NCBI GenBank assembly: GCA_020441045.1 | Contig: JAGRMV010000001.1 | Location: 8,167-72,166, forward strand | Reading direction: 5' to 3' | From: Deltaproteobacteria bacterium | GTDB taxonomy: Bacteria; Bdellovibrionota_G; JALEGL01; JAGRMV01 | DNA length: 64,000 bases | Shown here: piece after piece, positions 3,637 to 42,407 of the stretch | Numbering within the stretch: the first letter of the stretch is position 1 | Layout: each line of letters starts with the position of its first letter | Position numbers and translations under genes: made by a program | Notes under the pieces: model-generated | Databases searched by the model: none | The model's input: only the letters and a program-made list of their open reading frames with translations | Told to the model about the DNA's origin: nothing

Positions 3637-4146
3637 ATGATTAAAGCGCCCTTTCATTTGCAGGCTTGGATTGATGATAACCGTGACAAGCTTAAGCCTC
3701 CGGTTGGTAATGCCGAAGTTTTTCCGGGCAGTGACTACATTGTCATGGTAGTCGGCGGACCGAACAATCGCAGCGATTTTCATATCAACCAAGGTCCTGA
3801 GTTTTTCTTTCAACTGGAAGGCCAGATGAATTTACGCGTGATTGAAGGCGGCATTCCCAAAGATATACCGATCGCAGAAGGGGAAGTTTTTGTGCTTCCT
3901 GCCAATGTTCCTCACAGCCCCCAACGTTTTGCGCATAGTGTAGGATTGGTCGTAGAACAAGTTCGTGGACCTGAAGAAAAAGATGGGTTTTTATGGATTT
4001 GTGAAAAATGTCACACGGAACTTTATAAGGAATTTGTTCATGTCACCGATATTGTAGCGCAACTACCCATTGTATTTGACCATTTTTATCAGAACCCCGA
4101 ACATACCACCTGCAAAAACTGTGGTGAAATCGCAACACGATCCTAG
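3637..4146 (+). CDS. 3-hydroxyanthranilate 3,4-dioxygenase (cupin, kynurenine pathway)
   Basis: 169 aa; aligns by eye along its length with eukaryotic HAAO (…AWIDDNRDKLKPPVGN…MVVGGPNNRSDFHINQGPEFFFQLEG…VFVLPANVPHSPQRFAHSVGLVVE…). Confidence 0.8.
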   Translation: MIKAPFHLQAWIDDNRDKLKPPVGNAEVFPGSDYIVMVVGGPNNRSDFHINQGPEFFFQLEGQMNLRVIEGGIPKDIPIAEGEVFVLPANVPHSPQRFAHSVGLVVEQVRGPEEKDGFLWICEKCHTELYKEFVHVTDIVAQLPIVFDHFYQNPEHTTCKNCGEIATRS

Positions 4147-4154
4147 ATAGCGTT

Positions 4155-5168
4155 ATGTTAAAAATCGATATTCATACCCATATTATTCCCAAGATCATTC
4201 CGCAGTGGATGGAACAGTTCGGCTATGGTGGTTTTATTCAACTGGATCATCATAAAAACTGCTGCGCTCGAATGATCCTTGATGATGGCACGTTTTTTCG
4301 TGAAATTGAACACAACTGTTGGGACCCTGAGCAGCGTATCAAAGAATGTAATGAATCCGAAGTTGGTGTACAAGTTCTATCGACGGTGCCGGTGATGTTT
4401 AACTATTGGGCTCGGGCTGAACACACGCATGACACTTCCCGTTTTTTAAACGATCATATCGCCAGTGTCGTTGCGCAGTATCCAAAAAGGTTTGTCGGCC
4501 TGGGAACATTGCCCATGCAGAAAACCAGATTGGCCATCGATGAATTAGAAAGATGTGTACATGATTTACACCTGTCAGGTGTACAAATTGGATCGCATAT
4601 CAACAACATCAACCTGAGTGACCCAACGTTATTTCCGATTTTTGAAAAGGCGCAAGAAATTGGCGCCTGCGTTTTTGTCCACCCCTGGGATATGATGGGA
4701 GAAAAAAGCTTAGATAAATACTGGCTATCATGGCTTGTTGGCATGCCAGCCGAAAGCGCGCGAGCCATTTGCTCGATGATTTTTGGCGGCGTGTTAGAAC
4801 GTTTACCACACTTAAAAATTGCCTTTGCCCATGGCGGTGGCTCTTTTCCGGCAACCTTAGGCCGAATCGAACACGGCTTTCACGTACGACCTGACTTGTG
4901 CGCGGTGGATAACAATTGCAACCCACGCAAATACGTCAAACAAATCTACGTTGATTCCCTGGTACATGACCCCTATGCGCTTGAATTTCTCATCGACACT
5001 TTTGGCGTCGACCGCATTGCCCTGGGCAGTGACTATCCTTTTCCACTGGGCGAACATCGTCCAGGCGAACTCATCCAATCTATCCAATTAACAAAAACCG
5101 ACCGCGCCCAACTCTTACACGGCACCGCCTTAGACTGGCTCGGCAAAAAAATAGAAGATTTTATATAA
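4155..5168 (+). CDS. 2-amino-3-carboxymuconate-6-semialdehyde decarboxylase (ACMSD; amidohydrolase-2 family)
   Basis: 337 aa; N-terminus MLKIDIHTHIIPK…FGYGGFIQL and motifs …LSTVPVMFNYWA…FVGLGTLPMQ…FVHPWDMMG…YWLSWLVGMPAE…AFAHGGGSFP…RPDLCA…DSLVHDP…LGSDYPFPLGE closely track human ACMSD. Confidence 0.85.
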   Translation: MLKIDIHTHIIPKIIPQWMEQFGYGGFIQLDHHKNCCARMILDDGTFFREIEHNCWDPEQRIKECNESEVGVQVLSTVPVMFNYWARAEHTHDTSRFLNDHIASVVAQYPKRFVGLGTLPMQKTRLAIDELERCVHDLHLSGVQIGSHINNINLSDPTLFPIFEKAQEIGACVFVHPWDMMGEKSLDKYWLSWLVGMPAESARAICSMIFGGVLERLPHLKIAFAHGGGSFPATLGRIEHGFHVRPDLCAVDNNCNPRKYVKQIYVDSLVHDPYALEFLIDTFGVDRIALGSDYPFPLGEHRPGELIQSIQLTKTDRAQLLHGTALDWLGKKIEDFI

Positions 5169-5181
5169 TCAAAGTAGAAAA

Positions 5182-5200
5182 CAAGCTGCTACGCAGCTTG
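5182..5200. terminator. Short hairpin (CAAGCTG-5 nt-CAGCTTG) 14 nt after the ACMSD stop, between convergent genes
   Basis: Perfect 7-bp stem seen directly; no strong U-tract on the + side, a U-rich run (UUUUCUACUUUG) on the - side. Confidence 0.3.
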
Positions 5201-5252
5201 TCCTTCCCCCCCTAAGCACACCACCAGCAAAGCCATTAAAACACCCCAGATG

Positions 5253-5311
5253 CAAAATGATAGGAAGTTTTCATTACTTGCGCAGCTGTTTGAAAACTTC
5301 CTATCATTTTG
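5253..5311. repeat. Perfect 20-bp inverted repeat (CAAAATGATAGGAAGTTTTC / GAAAACTTCCTATCATTTTG) with a 19-nt loop, 21 nt downstream of the SDR stop
   Basis: Arms 5253-5272 and 5292-5311 are exact reverse complements. Confidence 0.55.
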
Positions 5312-5331
5312 TTCCCTAAACTACATGTTTT

Positions 5332-6111
5332 CTAAAGACTCTGCGTACGCCCGCCATCAACGACGAGATTTGTTCCATTGATATAACTAGCCGCAGGACT
5401 GGCCAAAAACGCAACCGCATTGGCGATTTCACTAGGCTCGCCTAGCCTTCCAGCTGGAATCATCTTTTTCCACATGACATCAATCTCTTGTACGGTTTTG
5501 GATAGGCGATTGGCACTGGCTTGCTTAAGTGTTGTCAGCCTTTCAGTATCTGTAAACCCTGGCAGAACATTATTGACTGTAATTTGATCCTGACCAAGTT
5601 CACTTGCAAGGGTTTTACTCCAATTGCCCATCGCCCCGCGGATGGTATTAGACACCCCAAGATTTGGAATGGGCGCTTTGACTGACGTAGAAATAATATT
5701 GATGATACGACCATATTTTTCTTTTTGCATCGATGGCACAAGCAATTGCGCTAAGGTTTGACTGGCCAAAACATGTGTTCGAAACGCCGTTTCAAATTCT
5801 TTTATGTCTGCATCGATCAGCGGACCCGCTTTTGGACCTCCTGCATTGTTGACCAAGACATGAAAAGGATGCTGCGCAAGTAGTGGGGTAACCCTATCAA
5901 TAATGTTGTTTTGATCAGAGAGATCAACAACAACAAATGCATGTCGATCTGCATGTGGCAACTGGGTCATCATTGATTTGAGCTTATCTTCACTGCGCGC
6001 CAGCAGTGTAACCTTTGCTCCAAGCTGTGCTAATGCAATGGCAGTCGAACGACCAATGCCACTGGAAGCACCACAAACCAACGCGTATTTATCCGCAAGA
6101 GAAATATTCAT
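5332..6111 (-). CDS. Short-chain dehydrogenase/reductase (SDR) family protein, atypical active site
   Basis: [11 protein letters not shown] cofactor motif, NNAG motif, and the LPGFTDT segment of a classical SDR. No YxxxK is visible where expected (…[24 protein letters not shown]…). Confidence 0.7.
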
Positions 6112-6162
6112 ATCTCTAGATATATCAATATTTACCTAGAGCGCAATATCCCATTGATGGGA

Positions 6163-7518
6163 CTATTTCAATAAGGTCATGGCTTGGGTAATACTGCCTG
6201 CCCCCATCGAACAAATGATATCTCCTGGCTTGCTATTTTGCTTTGCACTTTCCACACCTTTGGCGATTGAAGCAACATACAATGCCTTTGTTTTTCCACG
6301 CGCATTGATTTCTTCGACCAAACGCTCAGATGTAATATGTTCGATAGGTGTTTCACTGGCTTCGTAAACTGGCGTCACATAGACGCGATCGGTATAATCA
6401 AACACCTCAATATGTTTCTGCCAAGTATCACGCAGCCTCGTATATCGATGTGGTTGATACAAGACATGCACAACACCTAGCCCTGCTTTCTTTTTTAACG
6501 CAATCAAGGTTGCCAAAATTTCTGTGGGGTGATGCGCATAATCATCATACATATCAACACCCTCGATTTGACCATAATAATCCATGCGTCGATCAATACC
6601 TTTGAATTTTTTTAATGCCTTAGCAATATTTTTTGGCGCAAGACCAACGCGAAGACCGACAGCGAATGCACCTAAGGCATTGAGTACATTGTGCTTACCA
6701 AGCATAGGAAGCTCGACAGTGGCCAAACAATCTTTGGCATTCCATACCTCAAATACCATGTATTTTTCTTCGATACGGATGTTATCAGCTCGTATCATGG
6801 CTTTCATATGAGTACCGACGGTTAAAACTGGTTTATTGATTTCTTCCAAAATCTTGTGCACTTCAGGATCATCAATACAGAGAATGGTCAACCCATCAAA
6901 TGGTACACTAGAAGCAAATTGGGCAAAGGCAGATTTCAGATTGTCAAAACTACCATAATGATTCAAATGCTCTTGATCAATATTGGTAATCACCGCAACC
7001 TCGGGATAAAGATGTAAAAAAGAGCCATCGCTTTCATCGCTTTCTGCGACAAACCAGTTCGATTTCCCCACATATGCATTAGATTGTTTACTTTTTAAGC
7101 GTCCCCCCAAAACAAACGTTGGATCCAAATCATTTTCGAGCATCATATGGGCAACCATGGAAGTTGTGGTGGTCTTGCCATGTGACCCAGCAACAACAAG
7201 TGCTCTTTTTTTACGCATGAGTTCCGCCATCATTTCTGCTCTACGCAAAATTGGAATATGCTTATCCTTGGCTGCTATAAGTTCCACATTTTCATGCGTT
7301 ACGGCCGAAGAGTAGACCACCAGGTTGGCGCCATCGATATGAGATGCTTCGTGCCCCTGAAAAATCTTCGCCCCTTTTTGTGTTAATTTATCCGTCTCAC
7401 TATTTTGGCGGAGATCACTACCTTGCACTTCATAGCCTAAATCCAACAATACATCTGCAATTGCCGACATGCCAATACCTGCAATACCAACAAAATGAAT
7501 CTTTTGCTTATCCATCAC
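6163..7518 (-). CDS. murC: UDP-N-acetylmuramate--L-alanine ligase
   Basis: 451 aa; HFVGIAGIGMSAIA N-terminus, Mur ligase GSHGKTTTTSM P-loop, dcw context. Confidence 0.9.
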   Translation of the reverse strand: MMDKQKIHFVGIAGIGMSAIADVLLDLGYEVQGSDLRQNSETDKLTQKGAKIFQGHEASHIDGANLVVYSSAVTHENVELIAAKDKHIPILRRAEMMAELMRKKRALVVAGSHGKTTTTSMVAHMMLENDLDPTFVLGGRLKSKQSNAYVGKSNWFVAESDESDGSFLHLYPEVAVITNIDQEHLNHYGSFDNLKSAFAQFASSVPFDGLTILCIDDPEVHKILEEINKPVLTVGTHMKAMIRADNIRIEEKYMVFEVWNAKDCLATVELPMLGKHNVLNALGAFAVGLRVGLAPKNIAKALKKFKGIDRRMDYYGQIEGVDMYDDYAHHPTEILATLIALKKKAGLGVVHVLYQPHRYTRLRDTWQKHIEVFDYTDRVYVTPVYEASETPIEHITSERLVEEINARGKTKALYVASIAKGVESAKQNSKPGDIICSMGAGSITQAMTLLK

Positions 7519-9804: not shown

Positions 9805-10935
9805 TTACAGAACCCGCGAAATTTTGGCTTTCTGATGTGAGATCGAGCTTGATAGCGATAACAGAAGGCCCAGAGAAAACATTGTTGAAATCAATGAAGA
9901 ACCTCCATAGCTTACCAAAGGCAATGTTAAGCCTTTGGTCGGCAGAAGCCCCATCACCACGCCCATATTAAAAAGTCCTTGCAGACTGATCAATACTGTA
10001 ATGCCCATCGCTAAAATCGAAGCATATTGATCTTGAATCCGTATCGAAAGACGTATGCCTTGTACCATGACGATAAAAAATAATATGACCACGGCGGCGC
10101 AGCCAATAAAGCCCAGCTCTTCGCCAATCACTGAAAAAATAAAATCTGTATGTGCTTCCGGCAGATATAAAAGTTTTTGCGTACCATCACCTAACCCTTG
10201 CCCTGCCAAACCTCCTCGCTCAAAAGCGATCAATGACTGAATCATTTGGAAGCCATCGCCTTGTGGATCAGCCCATGGGTTGAGAAAGCTAAAAAACCGT
10301 TTTCGTCTGTATTCTGTCGAAAAAATCAAATAGGCCATCGTAATCAGCCCACTGCCAACCAGTGCCAACAAATGCTCCAGCTTTGCCCCAGCTACAAACA
10401 CCATCAAAATAAGAACACTACCGATGGTCACTGTCGTACCAAAATCAGGCTGTTTTAAAATCAATAGCAATACAAAACCTTGCATGCATAAAAGCGGCAG
10501 TAGGCCTTGTTTAAAGGATTGAATTTTTGGCCCCATCCGCTCAATATAACCGGCAGTAAATAAAATAAACCATGGCTTGATCATCTCACTGGGCTGAAAT
10601 CGAAAACCGCCTAAGCTCAGCCAGCGCGTGGCATGTTTTGCTTCCACCCCCAGAGACGTCACCAGTACGGTCAGTAGCAACAAAATACATAAACCAAATA
10701 GTGGTAAGCTGATTTTTTTAAGCACGTGCATGGGAATAAGCAGTGCCACAAACATGGCAATAAAACCAACGCCCAACATCACCAAGTGCCTCTTGAGATA
10801 GTGCGCATGATTAGAAAAATGCTCTGCAGCCATCAGGCTACTCGAGCTATACACCATCACCGTACCAATACATATGAGCAGAAGAATGGATCCGAGCAAA
10901 ATAGGATCTACATATCGAAGTCTAGGCGATTTCAT
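9805..10935 (-). CDS. ftsW: Peptidoglycan glycosyltransferase / lipid II flippase FtsW (SEDS family)
   Basis: 376 aa polytopic protein with SEDS features; ATGA overlap with murD stop. Confidence 0.85.
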   Translation of the reverse strand: MKSPRLRYVDPILLGSILLLICIGTVMVYSSSSLMAAEHFSNHAHYLKRHLVMLGVGFIAMFVALLIPMHVLKKISLPLFGLCILLLLTVLVTSLGVEAKHATRWLSLGGFRFQPSEMIKPWFILFTAGYIERMGPKIQSFKQGLLPLLCMQGFVLLLILKQPDFGTTVTIGSVLILMVFVAGAKLEHLLALVGSGLITMAYLIFSTEYRRKRFFSFLNPWADPQGDGFQMIQSLIAFERGGLAGQGLGDGTQKLLYLPEAHTDFIFSVIGEELGFIGCAAVVILFFIVMVQGIRLSIRIQDQYASILAMGITVLISLQGLFNMGVVMGLLPTKGLTLPLVSYGGSSLISTMFSLGLLLSLSSSISHQKAKISRVL

Positions 10936-12236
10936 ACGGGAACATCTGCAATACGTTTTTTAAAATGCCGGCCGCGTTCTTCGATATTTTGATATTGATC
11001 AAAACTCGTAAAGCCAGGTGAGAACAGTACCACATCACCACTTTTAAGCACAGTAAGAACTTGTGCAAAGGCCTGATCAAGGTTTTTGACCTGTACTAAA
11101 TTAGGATGGGAAAGCACTTTACCTAAGGTCGGTGCCATCTCGCCAAAAACAGTGATGCTGACAATATTCTCATATTGCTGTAGTCTTTGCGCAAAATCTT
11201 GTAAATCAAGACCTTTACCTTTGCCACCCATCATCAAATGCACAGGCGCTTGAAATTGAGTAAGTGCAAACAGCGTAGCATCCGGTGTTGTACTTTTGGA
11301 ATCGTTGACAAAAACATTATCACCTTTAACAATTTTTTCTTGGCGATGTTCCAGTTGGACAAAATGTGCCAACACTTCTTTCACCTTCTGGATATCGATT
11401 TTATAAATACATGCCAACAGAAACAAAGCCAAAACCTGCTGCTTTGGATGACCATGAAAATCTAATGTGATTTCTCGCCCGAACAGATAAATGCTCTCAT
11501 CTTTGACATAAGCGTCAGCGCGCTGATCTGCCTGTGTGGAAAATGTTAAAATTTTGGCCTCACACCCTAATGGAATAAGCTCAGGCTGGTCTGCCGACAC
11601 AATGGCGTAATCGTCTTTGCTCTGGTTTTGAAAGATGCGCTGTTTCGCATAAAGATAATGATCCATACTGCCATGTCGATCGAGATGATTTGCATACAGA
11701 TTTAAAAACACTGCCACCTTCGGGTGAAAACTTGTACTTTGTTGCAATTGGAAACTAGAAACCTCTACTACAGCATGATCACAGCCCTTGCCGAGCGCTT
11801 GGACCAATGCTGTTCCGTAATTACCACCTAGAAAAACATTTTTGTAGCGCATACAAAGCAAGTCGAAACTCATTTTCGCCATCGTAGATTTTCCAAGTGA
11901 ACCAGTAATCGCGAGCACAGGGCATTGCAATCGATCAAAAGAAAAATCAATTTCTGTTTGAACAGTGATCCCCCATGCGTGGGCTTGCGCAATGATTGGA
12001 TGCTCTGCTGGCACACCAGGGCTGATCAGCAACGTCCCAATATTTTTCTTCAAACAAGCGACATCATCAGCAAACACCTGCACATGTTGCCCCGGTTTTT
12101 TATAGGTTGTAACCAAAGTTTGAATCGCTTGCAGGTCACCACCATCAAAAATATCGATATCAGCATCTTGCAGGTATTGTAAAAGACCAAGGCCTGTGCG
12201 CAGGCCAAAGCCAAGAATACCGTATTTTTTTGACAT
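10932..12236 (-). CDS. murD: UDP-N-acetylmuramoylalanine--D-glutamate ligase
   Basis: 434 aa Mur ligase (…ITGSLGKSTMA…), position between mraY and ftsW. Confidence 0.9.
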   Translation of the reverse strand: MSKKYGILGFGLRTGLGLLQYLQDADIDIFDGGDLQAIQTLVTTYKKPGQHVQVFADDVACLKKNIGTLLISPGVPAEHPIIAQAHAWGITVQTEIDFSFDRLQCPVLAITGSLGKSTMAKMSFDLLCMRYKNVFLGGNYGTALVQALGKGCDHAVVEVSSFQLQQSTSFHPKVAVFLNLYANHLDRHGSMDHYLYAKQRIFQNQSKDDYAIVSADQPELIPLGCEAKILTFSTQADQRADAYVKDESIYLFGREITLDFHGHPKQQVLALFLLACIYKIDIQKVKEVLAHFVQLEHRQEKIVKGDNVFVNDSKSTTPDATLFALTQFQAPVHLMMGGKGKGLDLQDFAQRLQQYENIVSITVFGEMAPTLGKVLSHPNLVQVKNLDQAFAQVLTVLKSGDVVLFSPGFTSFDQYQNIEERGRHFKKRIADVPV

Positions 12237-23347: not shown

Positions 23348-23751
23348 AACGCCTGGACTATAACACATTCAAAACCTTTCCCCGAATTGTTTTGGAGCTC
23401 GTAAATATAGTGTTGGTAAAGGGCATCGTTTTTATAGACACCTAAAAATATGTACCAAGAATACTATTTATATTTCCTCAATACACGTTCTGCTTGGTTT
23501 CAAAATTTTTTCATTTCTATTGATACGATTCATTTTTGATCAGCCATTTTTTAAAAAAAATTACTGCGATCATGAAGAAATGATGAAAATTGCTGGTTTA
23601 TTATAGAATTGAAAATATCTGCGTATAGGCTTTGTCACCTCATTTCCTGATGCTACCAAGCCATTATATTCCTTTTATATTTTAATTTAAACTTATCTTA
23701 TTGTAAATAAATAACAATTTTGTGATAAAAAGTTACCTTTTTACATTTATA

Positions 23752-23782
23752 TTGACATGACCAGCTGGTGTTGCTGTATACT
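23752..23782 (+). promoter_or_regulatory. Candidate sigma70-type promoter (TTGACA-19 nt-TATACT) in the 460-bp AT-rich leader of the subtilase gene
   Basis: TTGACA at 23752-23757 and TATACT at 23777-23782, about 48 nt upstream of the ATG at 23830. Spacer is longer than optimal. Confidence 0.3.
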
Positions 23783-23829
23783 AAAAACCGCATTGATCAA
23801 AAATTGTCACTGAAAGGCACACCAAACTT

Positions 23830-26800
23830 ATGCCCAAAAAAAATTTATATTTGTTTTCTTTTCTGATTTTGGTCATTGGGATCACCTCTCTGAACACGCA
23901 AGTTATTGAACAAACCAGCCAAGAAGATCTGGGATTACTGAAAAGCAATATCTGGGGAGACATCGAAACAATATCTACAGACTCAACGATAAAAAACCGT
24001 GAGACCTTAACCGACATTCCAGGTGTATCGGCAGATCAAATCCGTATGCCTGGTGTGCATGCCGATGCTGATGCCTACGTTGATCTTTATAACAAACTCG
24101 AGCGCTATATTTTGGTGCATGAAATTGATGCCCGCGCCCCTTCGTTGGTTCAAAAGTATTTTGAACTCAAACATCACTATATCACTGATGAAGGTCCAGA
24201 AGTAAGTGCCGAAGGCTTTGCGCTCAAAGAAAAAATCCAACCCGAGATGACCGAAGTCATGCAAGGATACAAAGACACTTTTCGCGATGAAGTACAGCGC
24301 TTTGTCGATAACAATCTTAAGGTCATGTTACCCCAGCGCGAAGTCATTGTAGAAGAAATCCATCACCGCAATCAAGACCCTAGATCACAAACTCGTACCC
24401 AGAATAACAGTCCCATTGTCATTCGCTACGCAAATACCTCGATTCCATTTATTGAAATCGAAGGTATCAGCCTACAGGAAGCAACTGCACTAAAAAACGC
24501 CAAAAAAACCAAAAACATGGGATGGACCCGTATGGAAAAGGTTCAGCCCGTCAGCATCCACATGAATGATTCGGCTATGATTACCAATACCACACCATTA
24601 TATGGCAAACCTGGTCCAACCAGTCCCAACGGTAAATCCACCATGCTTGACGGATCAGGCACAACCATTGCCATTATTGATACAGGGATTGATTATACCC
24701 ACCCAGATTTAGGCGGATGCCTGGGCAATGCATGTAAAGTCATCGGTGGCTACGACTTCTACAACGACGATCCCGACCCTATGGATGAAAGATATCACGG
24801 AACGCACGTTGCTGCCATTGCAGCTGGAGTCGGCTCCTATACACAAGGCACCTATACCTATCCGATTCTTGGACAAGCACCTGGGGCAAGACTTTTTGCA
24901 TTGAAAGTCACCGATCCTGCTGGTTTTTCCACCAGTACACTTATCATCAATGCCATCGAAGCCAGCGCTGACCCCAATGGCGATGGCTTGTTCAATGATC
25001 GTGTTGATGTTGTCAACATCAGTATGGGCGGCGGTGGCAATCCGCTTGATTTACAAAGTGCGGCTCTGGATATGATTTCACAAACTGCCGAAATTCTTTT
25101 TGTTGTAAGTGCTGGCAACAATGGCCCCTATGGTCCGAGTATCTCAAGTCCAGGTGTTGCCGCTGAGGCCATCACTGTTGCTGCTGCCTGTGATGCCGAT
25201 CAAATTGGCAATGTCTCTTATACAGATTTACTAAGCGGGGAAGTGATTCAACTTTGCGATCAACCCATCGCACTTTTTTCGTCCCGTGGACCGGTGTTTT
25301 ATAATGGGGTCAATTACCAGAAACCTAATATTAGCGCACCAGGGGTGCAAATTTGTGCCGCCAGAAAAAGCGGGTATTCTGCCGCGGCCACATGCTTGGA
25401 CGCAGCACATATAGCCCTTGACGGTACCAGTATGGCGGCTCCACAAGTTGCTGGCATTGCTGCCATTTTACGCCAAATGGACCCAAACTTTACCAACCAA
25501 CAAATCAAAAATGCATTGTATACCTCGGCCATTGATTTGGGGATGGGAAACAATGCGCAAGGGCATGGCATGGTCGATGCGTTTGGTGCTTATAACGAAC
25601 TTTTCCCGTCTGCCAATTTAAGCTCGGGACTTGGAAGTTTTCAAATTCAAAACATGCCCCTGGTCTTAAACATCGATCCGATGTTTAAAGTCACCCAGTT
25701 TAGTCCTTTGATCGGCATAGAAAACCAAGCCAAATCTTCCGCATCATTTCAGTGGACAAGTCTAAACAACCTGCCACAAGGCATAACTTCGACGGCAGGC
25801 CCCTTATGGAACATTGCATCTGGTCAGATCGATGGCGTCCCGACCAATATTTTTGCCGATCATATGCAAATTCACAAAGGCAATTACTCCACCGACTTTT
25901 CTTTGGCACAAACCTTAAACAACAACACACTCAATTTCGATATTCCAGGTTATCTTCAAGTCCAACCCAAGCTCAAAGCCGACATTCAGAGTATTGATTT
26001 TGGTGTACACTCACCCAAAGACCCCAGTGGAAACTTCCTGCCATCACCGACCATTCTTTCGCAAAAGATTAAATTCGTAAACAAACTTTCAGATCATGGT
26101 CTGACCTATACCGTCAATGTATCCTCACTGCCCGCTGGTTTGGATGTCAGTCTACGTAGCTCGTTAAGTGGATCGGCCAGCTCATCTATTTATTTTGGCC
26201 CTGGCGTCGGCAAGTCTCGGATTTTACGAATCGACGTCGACAATACGATTGTCAAACCAGGCCGCTACGATGGCAAGTTAGAGTTAATTTCACCAAGCAA
26301 TGCCAATGGCGTCAGTGAAGTACTCAGCATTCCATTTACGGTATTTATTGGGTATCAAATCGAGTTCCATTTTCTCGGCACAGAAATTCCGTTTGAAGTA
26401 CAGCTCTTCCAGCCATATCAAAACGGCATGACCGAAACCGAATACAAACAGAAAAAAATCCATATTCCTTTTATCTTTGCGCCCAAAAGTGCGATCACAA
26501 CTTTTAATGTATTGGAACAAGGTACGCACTGGGCTTTGGCACAATACGCAAGTCAAGGCAACGAAAAATATCGATGGGTGATCAAGGAACAAATTCCTGT
26601 TTTCCAAAATGTGACCACTGTCAATATCGATATCAACCAATCTAATCACGTTCTGAATTTACAAGCCCTTGACCCAACAGGCAGCGATTTCAATCGATAT
26701 TGGACCCGACAAATCCGCTTGCTTAAAAAACAGCCCGGGCATGGCACTGTGTTTGTTGAAAACAATATCGTTTTGGGTGGTACCTCTTGGCCCAGCACAG

Positions 26801-28233
26801 ATGGGTTCATACGGATCAATGATCTATCAAGCGACTTTACCATAGCCATCAACTTCGGCGCCAGTCACCAAGGTGGATTAGGCGCTCCGGATTCTTATCT
26901 TTATCAAGGGTATCTCGCCAACGGAATTTTTACGGATAAAGCGTTGTTTGATTATACACAGCTCACGCAAAGAAAAATTCATACCCAAGTATTTGACCCA
27001 GCCATTCGCAGCGCAAGCTATCTAAACTATATTCGCGCTTTTCAACATCAACCGTCATATTCACCATATGGCGAAGCGTGGGATCCTCGCGGATATGGCA
27101 ACAGACTTGCGACCAATACAAATTTTGCCACGGTTTATGCACATGCCTTGATCGAAGCCGATCAGCCCCTGGCCAACAAAACATATCGTGACTGGCCGCT
27201 GCTGCATTTTTTCGCAGAAGACCTTTGGAACAATGCCAGCGGGAAAAAATATGATATTAAAAATAACTACGGCGGGATCGGGGTACTATTTGATCCTTTG
27301 CAAATGCGCATGATGAAGTTGTTAGATAGAGGAACGTTTTTCAAAGACATTCAAGTTCCACTGACAGAGTCCTATCTTTGGTCCCATGAGCTCCCCTTTC
27401 ATGACAACACCTTGATTCCTTTAGGCATTGGATTGGCAACCATCAAACCCGAGGCCAATTACTCGCCGGGTCTCATTCAAGGTTCCGGCATGGGGGCAGT
27501 ATCTCCCTTAATGATTCGTGTCGCCGGTGAAATGGCCGCAGGACCCTTTTCAAAATGTGGTGATTTTACAAACTGGGCAGGCAACGGCACAATGCCTGTC
27601 AACGATCCTTCCATTGCCAGCTGGGTCAACAGTCAGTCTTTTCCAGCTGTTAATTTCGGCAGCGTATGGGGATACTGGTACGCTGATCCTTTTGCAGGCG
27701 GCAGTGGCTCCGGAGAACTCAAAGTGCAATTTCAAGCCGATGTATGCGCTGAAGGGCAAAATCGTCTAGCACGGACTGTCTTGGTCAATCAGGTCGACTC
27801 TAGCACCTATACCGACACCCCTCCGTACCTGCAATCAGTTGTGTTGATGTCGCAAGGTTTGGACCCATATGTTCAAAACGGCATCACCACGACAGACAAG
27901 ATTGATTTGTATTTCCGAGCGTTATCGTCTCATCCTGAACATCTAGGACAAGGCGCGTATTTGGCATCGACCCACGAACTTCTCAATCAACCCGGCAATG
28001 TTCAAGTTCACATCAAAAAAGGATCGCAACAGTTTGCGCTGCCCTTTACGGTTGACGTTGATCCCAATGGCATCGACTTTCACGTCGAAATCGATCCAAC
28101 CTTATTGTTCGATCCATCTTATCCCGTCCCCAATGACGTGACCATGTCGATTTTATTGACCGATATACATGGCAATATCGCGCAACATGGGATTACCATC
28201 CCAGTCGTAAGCAGCTTACTTGAGGCGCCATAA
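23830..28233 (+). CDS. Secreted subtilisin-like serine protease (peptidase S8) with about 870-aa C-terminal extension of unknown function
   Basis: 1467 aa; signal peptide MPKKNLYLFSFLILVIGITSL. Catalytic triad regions IAIIDTGIDYTHPDL (Asp), HGTHVAAIAAG (His), GTSMAAPQVAGIAAIL (Ser). Confidence 0.8.
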   Translation: MPKKNLYLFSFLILVIGITSLNTQVIEQTSQEDLGLLKSNIWGDIETISTDSTIKNRETLTDIPGVSADQIRMPGVHADADAYVDLYNKLERYILVHEIDARAPSLVQKYFELKHHYITDEGPEVSAEGFALKEKIQPEMTEVMQGYKDTFRDEVQRFVDNNLKVMLPQREVIVEEIHHRNQDPRSQTRTQNNSPIVIRYANTSIPFIEIEGISLQEATALKNAKKTKNMGWTRMEKVQPVSIHMNDSAMITNTTPLYGKPGPTSPNGKSTMLDGSGTTIAIIDTGIDYTHPDLGGCLGNACKVIGGYDFYNDDPDPMDERYHGTHVAAIAAGVGSYTQGTYTYPILGQAPGARLFALKVTDPAGFSTSTLIINAIEASADPNGDGLFNDRVDVVNISMGGGGNPLDLQSAALDMISQTAEILFVVSAGNNGPYGPSISSPGVAAEAITVAAACDADQIGNVSYTDLLSGEVIQLCDQPIALFSSRGPVFYNGVNYQKPNISAPGVQICAARKSGYSAAATCLDAAHIALDGTSMAAPQVAGIAAILRQMDPNFTNQQIKNALYTSAIDLGMGNNAQGHGMVDAFGAYNELFPSANLSSGLGSFQIQNMPLVLNIDPMFKVTQFSPLIGIENQAKSSASFQWTSLNNLPQGITSTAGPLWNIASGQIDGVPTNIFADHMQIHKGNYSTDFSLAQTLNNNTLNFDIPGYLQVQPKLKADIQSIDFGVHSPKDPSGNFLPSPTILSQKIKFVNKLSDHGLTYTVNVSSLPAGLDVSLRSSLSGSASSSIYFGPGVGKSRILRIDVDNTIVKPGRYDGKLELISPSNANGVSEVLSIPFTVFIGYQIEFHFLGTEIPFEVQLFQPYQNGMTETEYKQKKIHIPFIFAPKSAITTFNVLEQGTHWALAQYASQGNEKYRWVIKEQIPVFQNVTTVNIDINQSNHVLNLQALDPTGSDFNRYWTRQIRLLKKQPGHGTVFVENNIVLGGTSWPSTDGFIRINDLSSDFTIAINFGASHQGGLGAPDSYLYQGYLANGIFTDKALFDYTQLTQRKIHTQVFDPAIRSASYLNYIRAFQHQPSYSPYGEAWDPRGYGNRLATNTNFATVYAHALIEADQPLANKTYRDWPLLHFFAEDLWNNASGKKYDIKNNYGGIGVLFDPLQMRMMKLLDRGTFFKDIQVPLTESYLWSHELPFHDNTLIPLGIGLATIKPEANYSPGLIQGSGMGAVSPLMIRVAGEMAAGPFSKCGDFTNWAGNGTMPVNDPSIASWVNSQSFPAVNFGSVWGYWYADPFAGGSGSGELKVQFQADVCAEGQNRLARTVLVNQVDSSTYTDTPPYLQSVVLMSQGLDPYVQNGITTTDKIDLYFRALSSHPEHLGQGAYLASTHELLNQPGNVQVHIKKGSQQFALPFTVDVDPNGIDFHVEIDPTLLFDPSYPVPNDVTMSILLTDIHGNIAQHGITIPVVSSLLEAP

Positions 28234-28441
28234 AAACAGCAATGACTCTATAAATTTGTTCATATCGACACTTTTTACTGACCCGCTTGCTATATAGAAC
28301 GGACAATATAGACATAAACACATTCAATGCTATATCGTATTATTCGATCAGTCCTGATGCTTTACTAACAAGCTAAGCTATACTACTCATCATTGTCTTC
28401 GCGGATACGCTTAAGATGCAAAATTTTCGAAAAAAGCGGGA

Positions 28442-35747: not shown

Positions 35748-36428
35748 ATGAAAATACTTCTGGTTGAGGATGACGTAAAAACGCAAAAATTCATTAGCAA
35801 AGGCCTTAAAGAACTAGGGCATCGCGTCGTCACTGCAGACAATGGGCAAGATGGCCTTTTTTTGGCTTTGGAAGAAGAATTTGATGCTATGATTCTTGAC
35901 CGCATGCTGCCTAAACTCGAAGGTATACACATCCTAAAAACCATCAAAAATAGTAAAAAAGAACTTCCGGTGTTAATGCTCAGCGCACTTGGCGAGGTAG
36001 CTCATCGGGTCGAGGGGCTCAATTTGGGTGCTGATGATTATCTGGTCAAACCATTTTCATTTACAGAACTGGTCGCCAGATTGGAAGCTATCGCCCGTAG
36101 AGGAGCGATGGCTGCTGACGAAACCATGCTTATACTCGGAGATTTACAGCTCAATTTACTTTCCAGGCAAGTCAAGCGCGCCGGCAAGGATATTGAACTG
36201 CAATCAAGAGAATTTCAATTGCTAGAGTATTTGATGCGCCACAAAAACCAGGTGGTAACGCGTACCATGCTACTTGAAAATGTATGGGACTATCATTTTG
36301 ACCCACAAACCAATGTCATTGATGTGCATATCAGTCGACTTCGCGGTAAAATTGATAAAGGATTCAATTCCGAATTGATTCATACCGTACGTGGAGCAGG
36401 CTACATCATGAAATTGGATGGCACATGA
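35748..36428 (+). CDS. OmpR/PhoB-family two-component response regulator
   Basis: 226 aa; receiver MKILLVEDD…DAMILDRMLP…; winged-helix C-terminus …VHISRLRGKID…. Confidence 0.85.
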   Translation: MKILLVEDDVKTQKFISKGLKELGHRVVTADNGQDGLFLALEEEFDAMILDRMLPKLEGIHILKTIKNSKKELPVLMLSALGEVAHRVEGLNLGADDYLVKPFSFTELVARLEAIARRGAMAADETMLILGDLQLNLLSRQVKRAGKDIELQSREFQLLEYLMRHKNQVVTRTMLLENVWDYHFDPQTNVIDVHISRLRGKIDKGFNSELIHTVRGAGYIMKLDGT

Positions 36429-36490
36429 AAAAACTTTTTTTGACCCATACCTTTAGACTTTCATTGGTCTATTAGCTTATTTTTTCTTTT

Positions 36491-37807
36491 TTGGTTGCCC
36501 TGCTCTTTGTTCTCATCTATCACAAAACCATTTCGTACTTAGAAAAGGAAACCGATACAATCATAGAAATCGAAATCAATGCATTATCTGATCAATACCA
36601 AAAAAATGGGATTTATGACTTGGTTGAGTCACTCAAACTAAAACTAGACAAATCACAAGCAACTTCATCGATTTATTTACTGACCGACAGTCGATTCAAC
36701 TCGCTTCTAGGTAATATTTCGCAGTGGCCCAAATCCTATGACAAAAACAAGCAATGGGTTGAATTCAATATCATCGGACCAGATAGTGTAAAACAGCGCA
36801 TCAAGGCAAAGTTATTTTTATTGCAAGGCGGCTATTATCTTTTAGTTGGACGTAATATTGAAACCCTCAAAAGAACCAAACAACTAATTTTAGATGCCAT
36901 TATATGGGGGCTTTTACTTACTCTCCTCTTAGGACTATTGGGAGGATATTTTGTTTCGCGAGGTATCTTACAAAGGATTACCATTATCACAAATAGTTGC
37001 AGAGAAATTATTCAAGGTAATTTAGAAAAGCGCATTCCTCAAAACCACCGACATGATGAGTTTGATGCCCTGGCCGAAACCATGAACACAATGTTAGATC
37101 GTATCAATGTCTTGATGACAGGTCTTAAACAAGTGACTGATGACATTGCTCATGATTTAAGAACCCCTTTGAGTCGACTTCGGCAATCTTTAGAAATCGG
37201 CGCGAAGGAAGATGACCCTGACAAAGCCCATCAAATCATGCAGTCCTGTGTAGAAGAAGTCGATGGTCTTTTATCCACTTTTAATGCACTCTTAAAAATA
37301 GCTTCAATAGAAAGTAGCAAGCAGGCTGAAGGTAAAACGAAAGTTAATCTTCAAAACCTTATCAATGATGTTTATGAATTATATCAACCCATTGCTGAAG
37401 AAAAATATCTTCACTTTCATTGTCTGCATATGGATGAACCGATATATATTCAAACCAATCGAAACTTGCTCTTTCAAGCACTTTCGAACGTTATTGATAA
37501 CGCCATCAAGTACACACCCGAACATGGGGAAGTTAAAATAAAAACCAGCATGTATCAAGATACGATTCAATTGGATATTCTCGATACAGGTGTGGGGATT
37601 CCTGCATCAGATCTAGTGCATGTCCACAAAAGATTTTATCGCTCCGATCAAAGCAGAAATAAACCTGGATCAGGGTTAGGCTTAAGCCTTGTGTATGCAA
37701 TTTGTCGCCATTTAAATATTGAAATCTCGCTTGAAAATAAATCTGTAGGTCTGAAAGTCACATTTTTGATAAAGCGTATAAGTAGCACAAATGATATTCA
37801 TTCATGA
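36491..37807 (+). CDS. Sensor histidine kinase. Annotated from TTG 36491; the natural ATG at 36425 is followed by an in-frame TAG at 36473, so this may be a pseudogene or N-terminally truncated.
   Basis: HAMP, H-box IAHDLRTPLS, N-box …VIDNAIKYTP…, G-boxes DTGVGIP / GSGLGLSLV. Read-through from 36425 would give a proper TM1 (MKKLFLTHTFRLSLVY*LIFSFLVALLFVLIY). Confidence 0.65.
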   Translation: MVALLFVLIYHKTISYLEKETDTIIEIEINALSDQYQKNGIYDLVESLKLKLDKSQATSSIYLLTDSRFNSLLGNISQWPKSYDKNKQWVEFNIIGPDSVKQRIKAKLFLLQGGYYLLVGRNIETLKRTKQLILDAIIWGLLLTLLLGLLGGYFVSRGILQRITIITNSCREIIQGNLEKRIPQNHRHDEFDALAETMNTMLDRINVLMTGLKQVTDDIAHDLRTPLSRLRQSLEIGAKEDDPDKAHQIMQSCVEEVDGLLSTFNALLKIASIESSKQAEGKTKVNLQNLINDVYELYQPIAEEKYLHFHCLHMDEPIYIQTNRNLLFQALSNVIDNAIKYTPEHGEVKIKTSMYQDTIQLDILDTGVGIPASDLVHVHKRFYRSDQSRNKPGSGLGLSLVYAICRHLNIEISLENKSVGLKVTFLIKRISSTNDIHS

Positions 37808-38220
37808 TCAGGAACCTGTAAAGGCGCTTTAGCGTATTTTTTTCTCCAGTGATTGATTGTCTTGATCACTGCTTGCCGATGCAAAAAAGCAATAATCAAA
37901 AATCTCTTTTTAGAAAAATCCGATATAGCTAGCCCCATTAAAATTGTAAGTAGACCCTGCCCAGGAAGAAACAACAAAGCCACCCCAACAGCAATCACCA
38001 AAACTGCAAAAAAATTTCTCAACAAAAATATTATTTTTTCTGTCCATGTAAATTTTGCTAAAGGTATCGAAGGTTGCTGCAACAAAAAATAATCACTGGG
38101 AATCAAGACAAAAAAAGCTATGGTTCCAATAAAATAGATGAGGAAAAATAACGCAGAAAAAGTAAACACCTCAGTTCCATGCAAGATCATCCATTGTTTT
38201 ACGTATAATAAATGCTCCAT
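37798..38220 (-). CDS. PGPGW-motif small inner-membrane protein (YbhQ-like)
   Basis: 140 aa, 3-4 TM, …LLFLPGQGLL… motif; follows the EEP gene. Confidence 0.5.
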   Translation of the reverse strand: MEHLLYVKQWMILHGTEVFTFSALFFLIYFIGTIAFFVLIPSDYFLLQQPSIPLAKFTWTEKIIFLLRNFFAVLVIAVGVALLFLPGQGLLTILMGLAISDFSKKRFLIIAFLHRQAVIKTINHWRKKYAKAPLQVPDHE

Positions 38221-38229
38221 TTCGTATCT

Positions 38230-38994
38230 TTATATAATAGAAGCATAAACCAAAAGCGGGTAATGATCAGAAGCCGTGACGGATGTCAAAACTTGTGTTT
38301 GGTGAACCAAAATACCCCGTGTAAAAACAAAAGAAAGTTGTCGTTTACTCAAGCGATGAATATTATCAGGGCCAAAAGCAACCTCGGATAGACCCAGGTT
38401 ATGTGAAAAATCAAGCAGAGCAGACATCTTTCTTTTTGACCAAGTATTAAAGTCACCGGCTAATACAACAGATCCTTGATGTTGGTCAATAATCGCATAT
38501 AAACTTTCTAATTCATGTAGAAATCTCTGCGTATTGATCATATTTAGCATATGCACGTTGACTGTAAGCAATTCAAATTGTTGATTACCAACAGGATGAT
38601 AAGATGCAACGGCTGGCTTTGGAATATAAATCAATGGTTCCTTGTTTTTACTATGCCAAACTTGAGATGTGTTGGAGACATATATTGACCCTGTTTTGAC
38701 GCCACTGAATTTTTTCTTTTGAGGAAGATATAAATTTTTGGCCATGGTCCATTGATAATGATCGAAGTACGAAAAAGGATATTGATCATCCAGCGAAACA
38801 GATACTTCTTGCAAAAAAGAAAATGCAGGCACTTGTTTGATACTTCCCATAGTATCTATGACAACTTCTGCATTGATTTTGTTGGTATTCCAAACCAAAA
38901 AAGAAAATATTTGCTGTGGCTGCAATACAAGGTGTGCTTTGCCGTATTGATCTTTCAGGGGTTGAACCGGTTGCACAAAAAACTTTCGGACCAT
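38230..38994 (-). CDS. Endonuclease/exonuclease/phosphatase (EEP) family protein (YbhP-like)
   Basis: 254 aa; EEP-type motifs (…LNMINTQ…, …VLAGDFNTW…, C-terminal …SDHYPL…); start overlaps cls stop (TAATG). Confidence 0.7.
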   Translation of the reverse strand: MVRKFFVQPVQPLKDQYGKAHLVLQPQQIFSFLVWNTNKINAEVVIDTMGSIKQVPAFSFLQEVSVSLDDQYPFSYFDHYQWTMAKNLYLPQKKKFSGVKTGSIYVSNTSQVWHSKNKEPLIYIPKPAVASYHPVGNQQFELLTVNVHMLNMINTQRFLHELESLYAIIDQHQGSVVLAGDFNTWSKRKMSALLDFSHNLGLSEVAFGPDNIHRLSKRQLSFVFTRGILVHQTQVLTSVTASDHYPLLVYASII

Positions 38995-40424
38995 TATAGG
39001 TATTCCCTAAAAAGATGCATAAAGAGATCACGGTATTGCGTCAGCACAGAGGTTTTGGCATAGGCTTCATCAGAAAACGCCGTCGCTCGTGTAATTTTTT
39101 GATCAATTATCTGATGAAGTTTTTTAACCAAATGCATATCATAACACTCAATATTTAATTCAAAATTCAGTGTAAAGCTTCTTTCATCCCAGTTGGATGA
39201 TCCTAAAAAAGCTACATCATCGTCAATCAAAAACAATTTACTATGATCAAATGGCGCAGGTGTTTCGTAAATCGCACATCCGTTTTTTGCAAGATGACTC
39301 AGCGGAATTTTTGAGCTCCACTGCATGATTTTGGCATTATTGGTTTTCGGCACAATGACTTCAACCAAAACTCCTGATGCTGCTGAAATACAAAGCAAAT
39401 CTAAGATATGGGCATCGGGTAAAAAATAAGGTGTTACAATACGAATACTTTTATTTGCGCTCGATAAAGCTGCAATAAATATAGAACGAAGCGTATCAAA
39501 ATCCTCATCGGGACCATCACGAATTGCCCGTGCCATAGTATATCCTGAAACTTGGTGAGAAACATGTGTAAAAACATCTTCAAGATTTTCTCCGGTCGTA
39601 AAGAGCCAATCTTCATAAAATGTTTGCTGAATCTGATCAACTACAGGCCCTTGAATACAAAAATGAATATCTTGCAAAATAGGTTGCTGCGTTTTTTGAC
39701 TGATGCCACTACGGATATTCATTCCACCAGTATAAGCTGTTTGCTGATCAATGATCAGTGTTTTACGATGGTTACGCAAATTGAAATATTTTGCACGCCA
39801 TGGGATCAATGACGGCAAAAACAATGCAACATTGAACTTATGTTTTTTAAGCAATCCAATAATCGGATGACTGGTATGCCTTGCCCCAACTGCATCAATC
39901 AAAATATAAATTTTAACGCCTCTTTTTTTGGCCCGTTCAAGGGCTGCAACAATCTCTGTACCCATCGCATCAGCATCAAAAATATAAGTGCACAAGGTAA
40001 TTACGCTTTGCGCTTGATCAATATTTTTGCACATGGACTGTGTCGCCAGCATAATCGTGTCTAATATTTCAATATGATTGCCTTGGGTTAGACTTTGCTG
40101 GGTCGTTTTTTGTGCATATCTCTGCAGCTTATCTGCACCAACATCTTGTATAATATCATTTTGCACAAAACGTCTTTGAATGTTTTGAATTTTGGCTTGA
40201 CGATAGATTCGATTGATACCGAGCAACCAATACAAAAAACTCCCAAAAAAAGGAGAAAACCAGATCAAAGCAACCCAGGCCAATCCTGTTTCCTTATATC
40301 TTTTTTCCCTTAGTATGTGCAATGTTGTCATCAAGCTGATCACAACATGCACCAACAAAAAAAGTATATTTCTAAACCGATATGCCAGTGATAAAAAATC
40401 TTTGATTTGTTCTACGTTGATCAT
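38994..40424 (-). CDS. cls: Cardiolipin synthase (PLD superfamily, two HKD motifs, two N-terminal TMs)
   Basis: 476 aa; HKD motifs HRKTLIIDQQTAYTGGMN and HSKLFLIDDDVAFLGSSNWDERS. Confidence 0.85.
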   Translation of the reverse strand: MINVEQIKDFLSLAYRFRNILFLLVHVVISLMTTLHILREKRYKETGLAWVALIWFSPFFGSFLYWLLGINRIYRQAKIQNIQRRFVQNDIIQDVGADKLQRYAQKTTQQSLTQGNHIEILDTIMLATQSMCKNIDQAQSVITLCTYIFDADAMGTEIVAALERAKKRGVKIYILIDAVGARHTSHPIIGLLKKHKFNVALFLPSLIPWRAKYFNLRNHRKTLIIDQQTAYTGGMNIRSGISQKTQQPILQDIHFCIQGPVVDQIQQTFYEDWLFTTGENLEDVFTHVSHQVSGYTMARAIRDGPDEDFDTLRSIFIAALSSANKSIRIVTPYFLPDAHILDLLCISAASGVLVEVIVPKTNNAKIMQWSSKIPLSHLAKNGCAIYETPAPFDHSKLFLIDDDVAFLGSSNWDERSFTLNFELNIECYDMHLVKKLHQIIDQKITRATAFSDEAYAKTSVLTQYRDLFMHLFREYL

Positions 40425-40978: not shown

Positions 40979-41770
40979 TTAGCTAAATCTTAAGCAGCGC
41001 ATCGACATCGATGCGTTTTGGTAGCCTTCAAAAATAAAGTCAATCATATCTTTTTCATTTGAGGCACCTAAAATATAAAGCAGTGGCAAGTAGTGTTCCC
41101 ATGTCGGAATGCTTAGCTTTGCTTCTGGCATTGTTTCTACATCTGCGATCAATGGTTGAAAATCGCGGGTAATGATTTTATCCTTGACCCAATGATCAAA
41201 TGCAACAACCCAATCATAAGGTTTTGCGTCAGTATCCCAATTGATTTTTCGAAGGTTGTGTACAATATTTCCACTGCCCATGAGCATCACTTCTTGCTTT
41301 CGAAGAAGAGCCAGCTTTTGGCCAAGTGCATAATGAAACGCCGGAGGCTGATTTTGATCCAAACTCAGTTGCAGAACTGGCACATCGGCATGAGGGTATA
41401 CATGCCTGAGCACAGCCCATGTACCATGATCTAACCCCCATTTATTTCTGTCGACTGTAATATTCTGATCAACCAGCATCGCAGCAATCTCTTCTGCCAA
41501 TATTGGCAAACCCTGTGCTGGATATTGAACTGCATAAAGCTCATCCGAAAAACCTGCAAAGTCATGAATCGTCTTTGGATGTTGCATACCCGTAATCCAT
41601 GTCCCTGTTGTTTCCCAATGCGCAGAAATCATTACAATGGCTTTTGGTTTAGGAAGGTTTTTTCCCAAACTGCGTAATGCTTGCGTATAGTCATTTTCTG
41701 CTATGACATTGATCGGTGAACCATGGCCAAAAAAAATCGCTGGCATTTTAGATGATGTATCGACATTCAT
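40979..41770 (-). CDS. ygiD: 4,5-DOPA dioxygenase extradiol-like protein (YgiD family)
   Basis: 263 aa; colinear with E. coli YgiD (…FFGHGSPINV…ISAHWET…IHDFAGF…GLDHGTWAVL…SGNIVHNLR…HYLPLLYILGA…). Confidence 0.8.
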   Translation of the reverse strand: MNVDTSSKMPAIFFGHGSPINVIAENDYTQALRSLGKNLPKPKAIVMISAHWETTGTWITGMQHPKTIHDFAGFSDELYAVQYPAQGLPILAEEIAAMLVDQNITVDRNKWGLDHGTWAVLRHVYPHADVPVLQLSLDQNQPPAFHYALGQKLALLRKQEVMLMGSGNIVHNLRKINWDTDAKPYDWVVAFDHWVKDKIITRDFQPLIADVETMPEAKLSIPTWEHYLPLLYILGASNEKDMIDFIFEGYQNASMSMRCLRFS

Positions 41771-41933
41771 TTTTAGATATCACCTTGGTTACGGTTTTTG
41801 ATTTTTTATACAGTCACAATGACCGACAAATAGGCATACCATACTCTGCATGGGACTTAAAAGCTTTTACCTAATAAGCTTGTTTTGGTATGCTCAGAGA
41901 GATGATTGTTCACCCCAAAAGGAGAATAAAGAC

Positions 41934-42407
41934 ATGGCATTACTCGAAGAAGGCAAAAAAGCCCCTGCATTTACTTTGGCATCTACAAGCGGGAAAAATA
42001 TATCTTCTAAAGATTTATTAGGTTCGTCCTATATTTTATTTTTCTACCCAAAAGACAATACACCTGGTTGCACCAAAGAGGCCTGCTCTTTTCGAGATCA
42101 TTTCTCCAAGCTAAAACGCAAAAAAATTGCACTTTTTGGTATCAGTCCCGATTCCATTGCCAGTCATGAAAAATTCATCAGCAAACAAGAACTTCCTTTT
42201 GAACTTTTAAGTGATCCTGAGCATAACATTGCCGAAAAATTCGGAGCTTGGGGAGAAAAGAAAATGTATGGCAAGTCATATATGGGTATTTTGCGATCAA
42301 CTTTTATCGTCAATGATAAAGGTATCATCGTCAAAGTTTATCCCAAAGTCCAAGTGGCAACCCATGCCGAAGACATTTTGGAAGATCTAAAAGATATAAA
42401 ACTCTAA
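41934..42407 (+). CDS. bcp: Thioredoxin-dependent thiol peroxidase (peroxiredoxin Bcp)
   Basis: ATG at 41934 behind RBS AAAGGAG; MALLEEGKKAPAFTL…; peroxidatic Cys in …FFYPKDNTPGCTKEAC…. Confidence 0.85.
   Translation: MALLEEGKKAPAFTLASTSGKNISSKDLLGSSYILFFYPKDNTPGCTKEACSFRDHFSKLKRKKIALFGISPDSIASHEKFISKQELPFELLSDPEHNIAEKFGAWGEKKMYGKSYMGILRSTFIVNDKGIIVKVYPKVQVATHAEDILEDLKDIKL

Follow-up and report, generated by a model that had tools for sequence, protein, structure and literature searches.

Sensor kinases of the EnvZ/CusS type are class I histidine kinases, in which a first transmembrane helix (TM1), a periplasmic domain and a second transmembrane helix (TM2) precede the HAMP, HisKA and HATPase_c domains, and whose genes overlap those of their response regulators. 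EnvZ-type kinases deprived of TM1 are signal-blind, and their activity becomes constitutive or is lost. Nonsense and other loss-of-function alleles of sensor kinase genes are common in bacteria, both in natural populations and in experimental evolution, and restart polypeptides produced after early nonsense codons are classically exemplified by lacI amber mutants. Here we describe a two-component gene pair encoded in a 64-kb stretch of DNA (the window), which is part of a 77,148-bp contig of a metagenome-assembled genome (MAG) labelled 'Deltaproteobacteria bacterium'. Codon 17 of its sensor kinase gene, in the middle of TM1, is an amber TAG, and comparisons with homologues make it likely that this codon represents a real, evolutionarily recent nonsense allele.

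The pair shares with EnvZ/CusS-type systems the order of domains and the overlap of regulator and kinase genes, but differs from them in the interruption of TM1 and in sub-threshold scores with the heavy-metal models. As in spontaneous kinase nonsense alleles, the stop results from a single base in the kinase gene of a regulator-kinase operon, the regulator is intact and there is no downstream polarity; unlike them, the window allele is known from a MAG consensus alone. The arrangement also resembles termination-reinitiation systems, as the stop is followed at 15 nucleotides (nt) by an in-frame TTG, a distance in the range of partial coupling in E. coli. In contrast to lacI-type restarts, however, the candidate restart codon is a new mutation at an invariant residue and lacks a Shine-Dalgarno (SD) motif. 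The amber codon is an ordinary gene-breaking mutation of a known kind, and only the new TTG, which replaces an invariant serine, sets the locus apart.

The interrupted sensor kinase gene

The single close relative of the window belongs to a second MAG (GCA_041391435.1, contig JAWKOA010000006.1, locus L002), referred to below as the sister, which is collinear with the window at 97.5–99.3% identity. Despite their ~99% identity the two MAGs carry different labels, the sister being named 'Bdellovibrionota bacterium'. The features of the regulator-kinase locus, all on the plus strand, are as follows:

35748–36428, plus strand: OmpR-family response regulator gene, 226 amino acids (aa), intact (open reading frame (ORF); Pfam Response_reg and Trans_reg_C)
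36425–36427, plus strand: ancestral ATG start of the sensor kinase (read from the sequence; the sister's 460-aa kinase is called from the homologous ATG)
36425–36472, plus strand: 16 codons ahead of the stop (MKKLFLTHTFRLSLVY), cytoplasmic N-tail and first 5 TM1 residues (same as in the sister; FRLxLxY motif)
36458–36520, plus strand: TM1 coding region, codons 12–32, split by the TAG (Kyte-Doolittle profile, apolar runs)
36473–36475, plus strand: premature amber TAG, codon 17 (A at 36474; T in the sister, giving TTG, Leu)
36491–36493, plus strand: derived TTG, codon 23, Leu, the NCBI-annotated start of the 438-aa product (T instead of C at 36492)
36491–37807, plus strand: 438-aa ORF as publicly annotated (ORF list; MCB1196766.1)
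36896–36958, plus strand: TM2, codons 158–178, intact (hydropathy)
36950–37774, plus strand: cytoplasmic transmitter with HAMP, HisKA and HATPase_c, all intact (Pfam on the sister's full-length protein)

The ATG of the kinase overlaps the TGA of the regulator (36426–36428) in a 4-nt ATGA. Translated from this ATG (36425–37810), the frame reads MKKLFLTHTFRLSLVY, the TAG, then LIFSFLVALLFVLIYHKT and onwards, with 443 more codons up to the stop at 37805–37807; the base that follows the TAG is C. The longest ORF past the TAG starts at TTG 36491 and corresponds to the 438-aa kinase of the NCBI records, in which the regulator is MCB1196765.1. An earlier note on this DNA had described the same coupled junction and the same amber codon at 36473–36475, with which sequence and translation agree exactly. 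It had also named TTG 36491 as the next possible start, which is indeed where the post-TAG ORF begins, and had proposed that a kinase started there would be without a proper TM1, a view that the hydropathy profile described below bears out.

On both sides the in-frame stop is flanked by sequence homologous to the coding sequence of orthologues. Since the 16 codons ahead of it are the same as in the sister and carry the family motif, a stop arising by chance in non-coding DNA can be dismissed. No gene follows the kinase in its operon and the neighbouring gene is convergent, so that no polarity on any other gene is expected. This neighbour, which encodes a PGPGW-family membrane protein (37798–38220, minus strand), is overlapped by the 3' end of the kinase gene over 10 nt (37798–37807).

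In the full-length protein, TM1 (stretch LSLVYLLIFSFSVALLFVLIY) and TM2 bracket an input domain of ~125 residues. The Pfam matches behind it comprise HAMP at codons 176–228 (E = 5.1e-10), HisKA at 235–297 (E = 3.4e-08), with the H-box AHDLRTPL in the window translation, and HATPase_c at 346–450 (E = 2.8e-22). The window thus has the HisKA domain with its H-box, the HATPase_c and HAMP domains and the adjacent OmpR-family regulator that characterise class I kinases. The two transmembrane helices that such kinases encode in one uninterrupted ORF are not found, TM1 being cut at codon 17. The product started at TTG (MVALLFVLIYHK) retains just 10 apolar residues of TM1, MVALLFVLIY, and no segment of its N-terminus rises above the 19-residue Kyte-Doolittle threshold. 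With respect to family placement, the best NCBIfam model for the kinase is TIGR01386 (cztS_silS_copS) with 176.3 bits against a cut-off of 292.55, and the regulator reaches 252.6 against 279.2 with TIGR01387 and 256.3 against 420 with NF007346 (Cu/Ag regulator). Because all these scores lie below the curated cut-offs, membership in the heavy-metal (CusS/SilS/CopS, CusR-type) subfamily was not assigned, and the gene pair is a generic OmpR/EnvZ-class two-component system.

Origin and authenticity of the amber codon

The 90%-identity cluster of the window kinase contains only one other protein, MEZ4819329.1 (P0121), which is the 460-aa kinase of the sister. Translation of this uninterrupted kinase begins at the corresponding ATG with MKKLFLTHTFRLSLVYLLIFSFSVALLF. 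Over the 2060 nt of the regulator-kinase block, 21 differences and no indel separate the two MAGs. The regulator accounts for 8 differences, 2 of them non-synonymous, with a ratio of non-synonymous to synonymous differences per site (pN/pS) of 0.09. The kinase differs at 13 positions; its pN/pS of 0.14 stands against 0.09 in twelve genes of the neighbourhood, and 13 differences are too few to show ongoing selection on the window copy. At codon 17 one base turns the sister's leucine codon into TAG, and at codon 23 one base distinguishes the window TTG (Leu) from the sister TCG (Ser), whereas codons 24 and 29 show synonymous differences only. The other amino-acid differences between the MAGs, at codons 267 and 328, both fall in highly variable alignment columns. 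Two tight groups of synonymous changes were also noticed in the kinase gene. One is at 36928–36931, where the window has CTC TTA and the sister CTG CTT and both leucines are kept, and the other, with three third-position changes in 10 nt, is at 37030–37039; they suggest multi-nucleotide events or micro-recombination.

For a wider view, 120 homologues were aligned, the sister and 119 more distant proteins, drawn from a collection of 5.8 billion proteins in which homologues outside the sister cluster reach ~50% identity at most. A scan for the kinase in a genome collection of GTDB representatives, which does not include the species of the window, returned only an unrelated Patescibacteria kinase of 25% identity. 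The N-terminal, TM1-forming segment is present in 114 of the 120 homologues, and the residues of the motif F10-R11-L12-x-L14-x-Y16 are each conserved in 99–111 of them. Column 17 is hydrophobic (Met in 84, Ala in 10, Ile in 9, Leu in 8, others in the rest), with leucine in the four nearest homologues, which are 50% identical (FKLALLYLLIFS). The hydrophobic nature of this column, together with the prevalence of the N-terminal segment, fixes the polarity of the change: the TAG is derived and arose in the window lineage. Column 23, on the other hand, is the most conserved of the alignment, with serine in all 118 other homologues (118/118).

The N-terminal segment is absent from just six homologues, and the idea that orthologues truly start downstream was rejected on this count. 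Five of the six start at, or immediately after, a methionine that aligns with codon 17, while P0008, of 420 aa, starts ~38 residues into the sequence. Four of the five closely match full-length proteins such as P0013, P0016 and P0018, which points to differences in start calling. Four homologues of 435–436 aa, P0075, P0088, P0107 and P0114, are annotated from the Met at codon 17 and closely resemble 453-aa proteins with a full N-terminus, and by this resemblance their starts are probably miscalled. The earlier note had left the choice between a nonsense mutation and a sequencing error, and had asked whether orthologues all start at the downstream TTG with a short N-terminus. They do not, as the 114 proteins with a TM1 N-terminus demonstrate, and the sister has a sense codon (TTG, Leu) at 36473–36475 in a 460-aa protein that begins at the overlapping ATG. 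Of these alternatives, the sister and orthologue comparisons support a recent nonsense mutation.

The rest of the gene shows no decay. The window agrees with the consensus at 62 of the 64 columns with conservation of 99% or more. It departs from it at codon 23, where leucine replaces serine (S23L), and at a column with a conservative K/R exchange, in which the sister carries the same residue (window and sister are the same at codon 73). Intact domains, conserved columns and the pN/pS of 0.14 together indicate that the mutation is recent and that no decay has accumulated. A degrading, pseudogene-rich genome was considered and rejected, as the window is ~91% coding with long intact ORFs, and the 18 genes comparable with the sister contain no other interruption.

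Decoding of the TAG by a suppressor tRNA, as pyrrolysine or by programmed read-through, from which a full-length kinase would result, is highly improbable. Nothing specific points to it beyond the preservation of the frame across the TAG, followed by C. Among 47 likely genes of the window, 26 end in TAA, 14 in TGA and 7 in TAG; one of the latter is the 3-hydroxyanthranilate 3,4-dioxygenase gene (3-HAO, 3637–4146), the same gene that the earlier note had cited, as HAAO, for the use of TAG as a genuine stop. No tRNA gene was found within the window. The TAG is not conserved at the site, where the sister has a plain leucine codon and where no homologue lacks a residue for a reason connected with recoding, and the position itself is a buried residue of a transmembrane helix that offers no reason for a special amino acid. 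On stop-codon usage and the lack of TAG conservation, recoding and suppression were rejected.

A more serious alternative is that the TAG exists only in the assembly. The organism would then truly have TTG (Leu) at codon 17 and a normal 460-aa kinase, or the assembler would have followed a rare variant. We consider such a consensus error or captured minority variant unlikely, although the window contig comes from a MAG, and so represents a population consensus, and the site was seen in no second assembly. Strain variants do coexist in the population: a Logan contig of SRR7638773 is 99.85% identical to the window over 4002–6649, with differences at 4 of 2648 positions. Single-base lesions can also occur in MAGs of this lineage, as the sister's FtsW, MurD and BatD genes illustrate. 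Substitution errors are, however, rare in consensus sequence. When the 18 genes common to window and sister are compared, an internal stop is found on the window side in the kinase only, and FtsW, MurD and BatD, broken in the sister, are intact in the window. Over the adjacent 2 kb, 37577–39618, contigs of three ENA samples that were assembled separately (SAMN08389193, SAMN08389199 and ERZ27309180) match the window at 100% identity, the last 76 codons of the kinase included, and the sister at ~99.1%. An artefact would moreover have to explain S23L, six codons on, by a second independent error or by the improbable loss of an invariant residue from a gene that still functions. In a real allele, a change at the most conserved column just after the stop fits relaxed or altered selection on TM1; as judged from the alignment, S23L is hard to square with a functional full-length gene and would be easily understood if TM1 were untranslated or newly selected.

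Several points weigh against a real and recent nonsense allele. The foremost is that no independent assembly spanning 36474 was found by exact look-ups, scans of JGI metagenomes or protein searches. Exact look-ups of the 438-aa kinase and of the regulator in a contig index found neither, and the JGI scans with peptide patterns and with a TAG-spanning DNA pattern, in which the codon was left free, gave no match. A protein search with the N-terminal 153 aa gave no scoring candidates and failed to retrieve even the protein of the window itself, which reflects a limit of the word index and is not evidence of absence. The search with residues 1–265 recovered the known cluster and no near-identical fragments. 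Look-ups of neighbouring genes did find the same-population Logan and ENA contigs, the nearest of which ends at 37577, inside the 3' end of the kinase, and literature searches with the run, sample and assembly accessions found no papers. The two derived changes are found in T-rich sequence, and of the 13 kinase differences 4 fall within 38 nt. Such clustering could reflect a segment of poor or chimeric sequence, although tight synonymous clusters also occur elsewhere in the gene. With a single close relative, the age of the allele and its frequency in the population are not measurable. Finally, TTG is a weak start without an SD motif here, and the product of a restart may be negligible. Weighed against the comparisons above, these points leave a real nonsense allele as the reading that we favour, and we infer that it is carried by cells of the sampled population.

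The derived TTG and possible reinitiation

If the allele is real, its consequences can be outlined as follows. A T-to-A transversion at 36474 in the window lineage changed the leucine codon 17, TTG, in the middle of TM1 to amber TAG. Ribosomes coupled from the regulator through the ATGA would make a 16-residue peptide and terminate at the TAG, and the full-length sensor, with its input module of TM1, periplasmic domain and TM2, would no longer be produced. At most, some ribosomes might restart 15 nt further on at TTG 36491, a codon that arose from TCG, likewise in the window lineage. The 438-aa product would have an intact catalytic core and, in place of TM1, a 10-residue hydrophobic stub with which normal topology and sensing would be impossible. 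The net effect would be that signal input to the intact OmpR-type regulator is lost or rewired. The 438-aa, TTG-started kinase of the public record is not flagged as what remains of a 460-aa transmembrane sensor after loss of its N-terminus. When signalling in this Bdellovibrionota-like population is inferred, the two-component system should be treated as probably input-dead in this strain.

How far a restart takes place depends on the TTG itself. By comparison with the family, this codon is not ancestral: it is a second derived change, from TCG (Ser) to TTG (Leu), at the family-invariant serine, so that TM1 of the window lineage carries two radical changes in the space of 7 codons. The TTG sits 15 nt past the TAG, within the roughly 20 nt after a stop in which an in-frame start is looked for, and is the sole canonical in-frame start close to it; the next in-frame ATG, GTG or TTG is the TTG of codon 66, 144 nt downstream. 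It has no SD motif and a U-rich tract upstream, and the predicted local RNA structure is weak (z = −0.40). An SD-like motif was detected by a crude motif scan in only about half of the window genes. In native gene pairs of E. coli, a spacing of +14 nt cut termination-reinitiation by 40–80%, so that 20–60% of coupling was kept, and a spacing of ~+38 nt abolished it (PMC10666635). As the 15-nt spacing lies within this range of partial coupling, some restart is plausible; by analogy with E. coli, restart at TTG 36491 is feasible but would probably be inefficient.

The position of the new start raises the question of whether the amber codon and the TTG are a selected pair, in which reinitiation yields a TM1-less kinase and the gene is rewired rather than dead. 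The product might, for example, be a signal-blind constitutive kinase or phosphatase, or be exported by means of the short hydrophobic stub. The TTG is derived, replaces an invariant serine and is the only canonical start in reinitiation range (15 compared with 144 nt). For a neutral in-frame start to arise within ~12 codons of the stop over this span of time, the probability is ~0.05 by a rough estimate from pS. Codons 24 and 29 have changed synonymously only, and the remainder of the gene has an ordinary pN/pS. Nevertheless, this is one event and may be due to chance, and the few differences between the MAGs cannot carry a signal of selection on the window copy. A weak TTG without an SD motif is a poor basis for rescue, a 10-residue stub cannot span the membrane, and relaxed constraint on a dead N-terminus accounts for S23L equally well. 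Compensation of this kind is therefore considered rather unlikely, and a plain nonsense allele with occasional restart at best is preferred. If the two changes were a selected pair, the locus would be a natural case of compensatory start-codon creation, either rescuing a nonsense mutation or pre-adapted to it. In any event, the amber codon with its new TTG offers a small and cheaply testable case for the question of whether restart codons arise in nature as nonsense compensation.

Other features of the window

Comparison with the sister brought out several further differences. The sister lesions mentioned above affect genes that are intact in the window: a 1-bp deletion (CC versus C; window position 28662) divides its BatD gene, FtsW is split into 280 and 87 aa compared with 376 aa, and MurD has 396 compared with 434 aa (window 9805–12236 for these two). 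The broken ftsW of the sister suggests assembly errors in that MAG rather than real pseudogenes. Three 1-bp homopolymer differences between window and sister, at 31948, 32025 and 32044 (T8/T7, T7/T6 and A5/A4), lie within 100 nt of one another, just upstream of the annotated start of the sister's VWA/TPR gene. The VWA/TPR ORF of the window extends to 32193, giving 650 aa compared with 554 aa in the sister and a 79-nt overlap with the upstream gene.

A ~5-kb segment at 23387–28414 is present only in the window, the sister having 122 nt of unrelated sequence at this place. Its G+C content is 44%, compared with 41% for the window, and it carries a gene for an S8-family (subtilase) peptidase of 1467 aa (23830–28233, MCB1196758.1), which is alone in its 90% cluster. 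Between ~40400 and 42500 identity to the sister drops to 82–89%, with flanks at 99%. The divergent patch covers the genes for a LigB-family extradiol dioxygenase (40979–41770) and an AhpC/TSA peroxiredoxin (41850–42407; pN/pS 0.13), and looks like an allele replacement through recombination. The 3-HAO gene (Pfam 3-HAO, E = 4e-55) is followed after 8 nt by an Amidohydro_2 gene, the two spanning 3637–5168. The Amidohydro_2 protein could be ACMSD, in which case the two genes would form a kynurenine-pathway pair.

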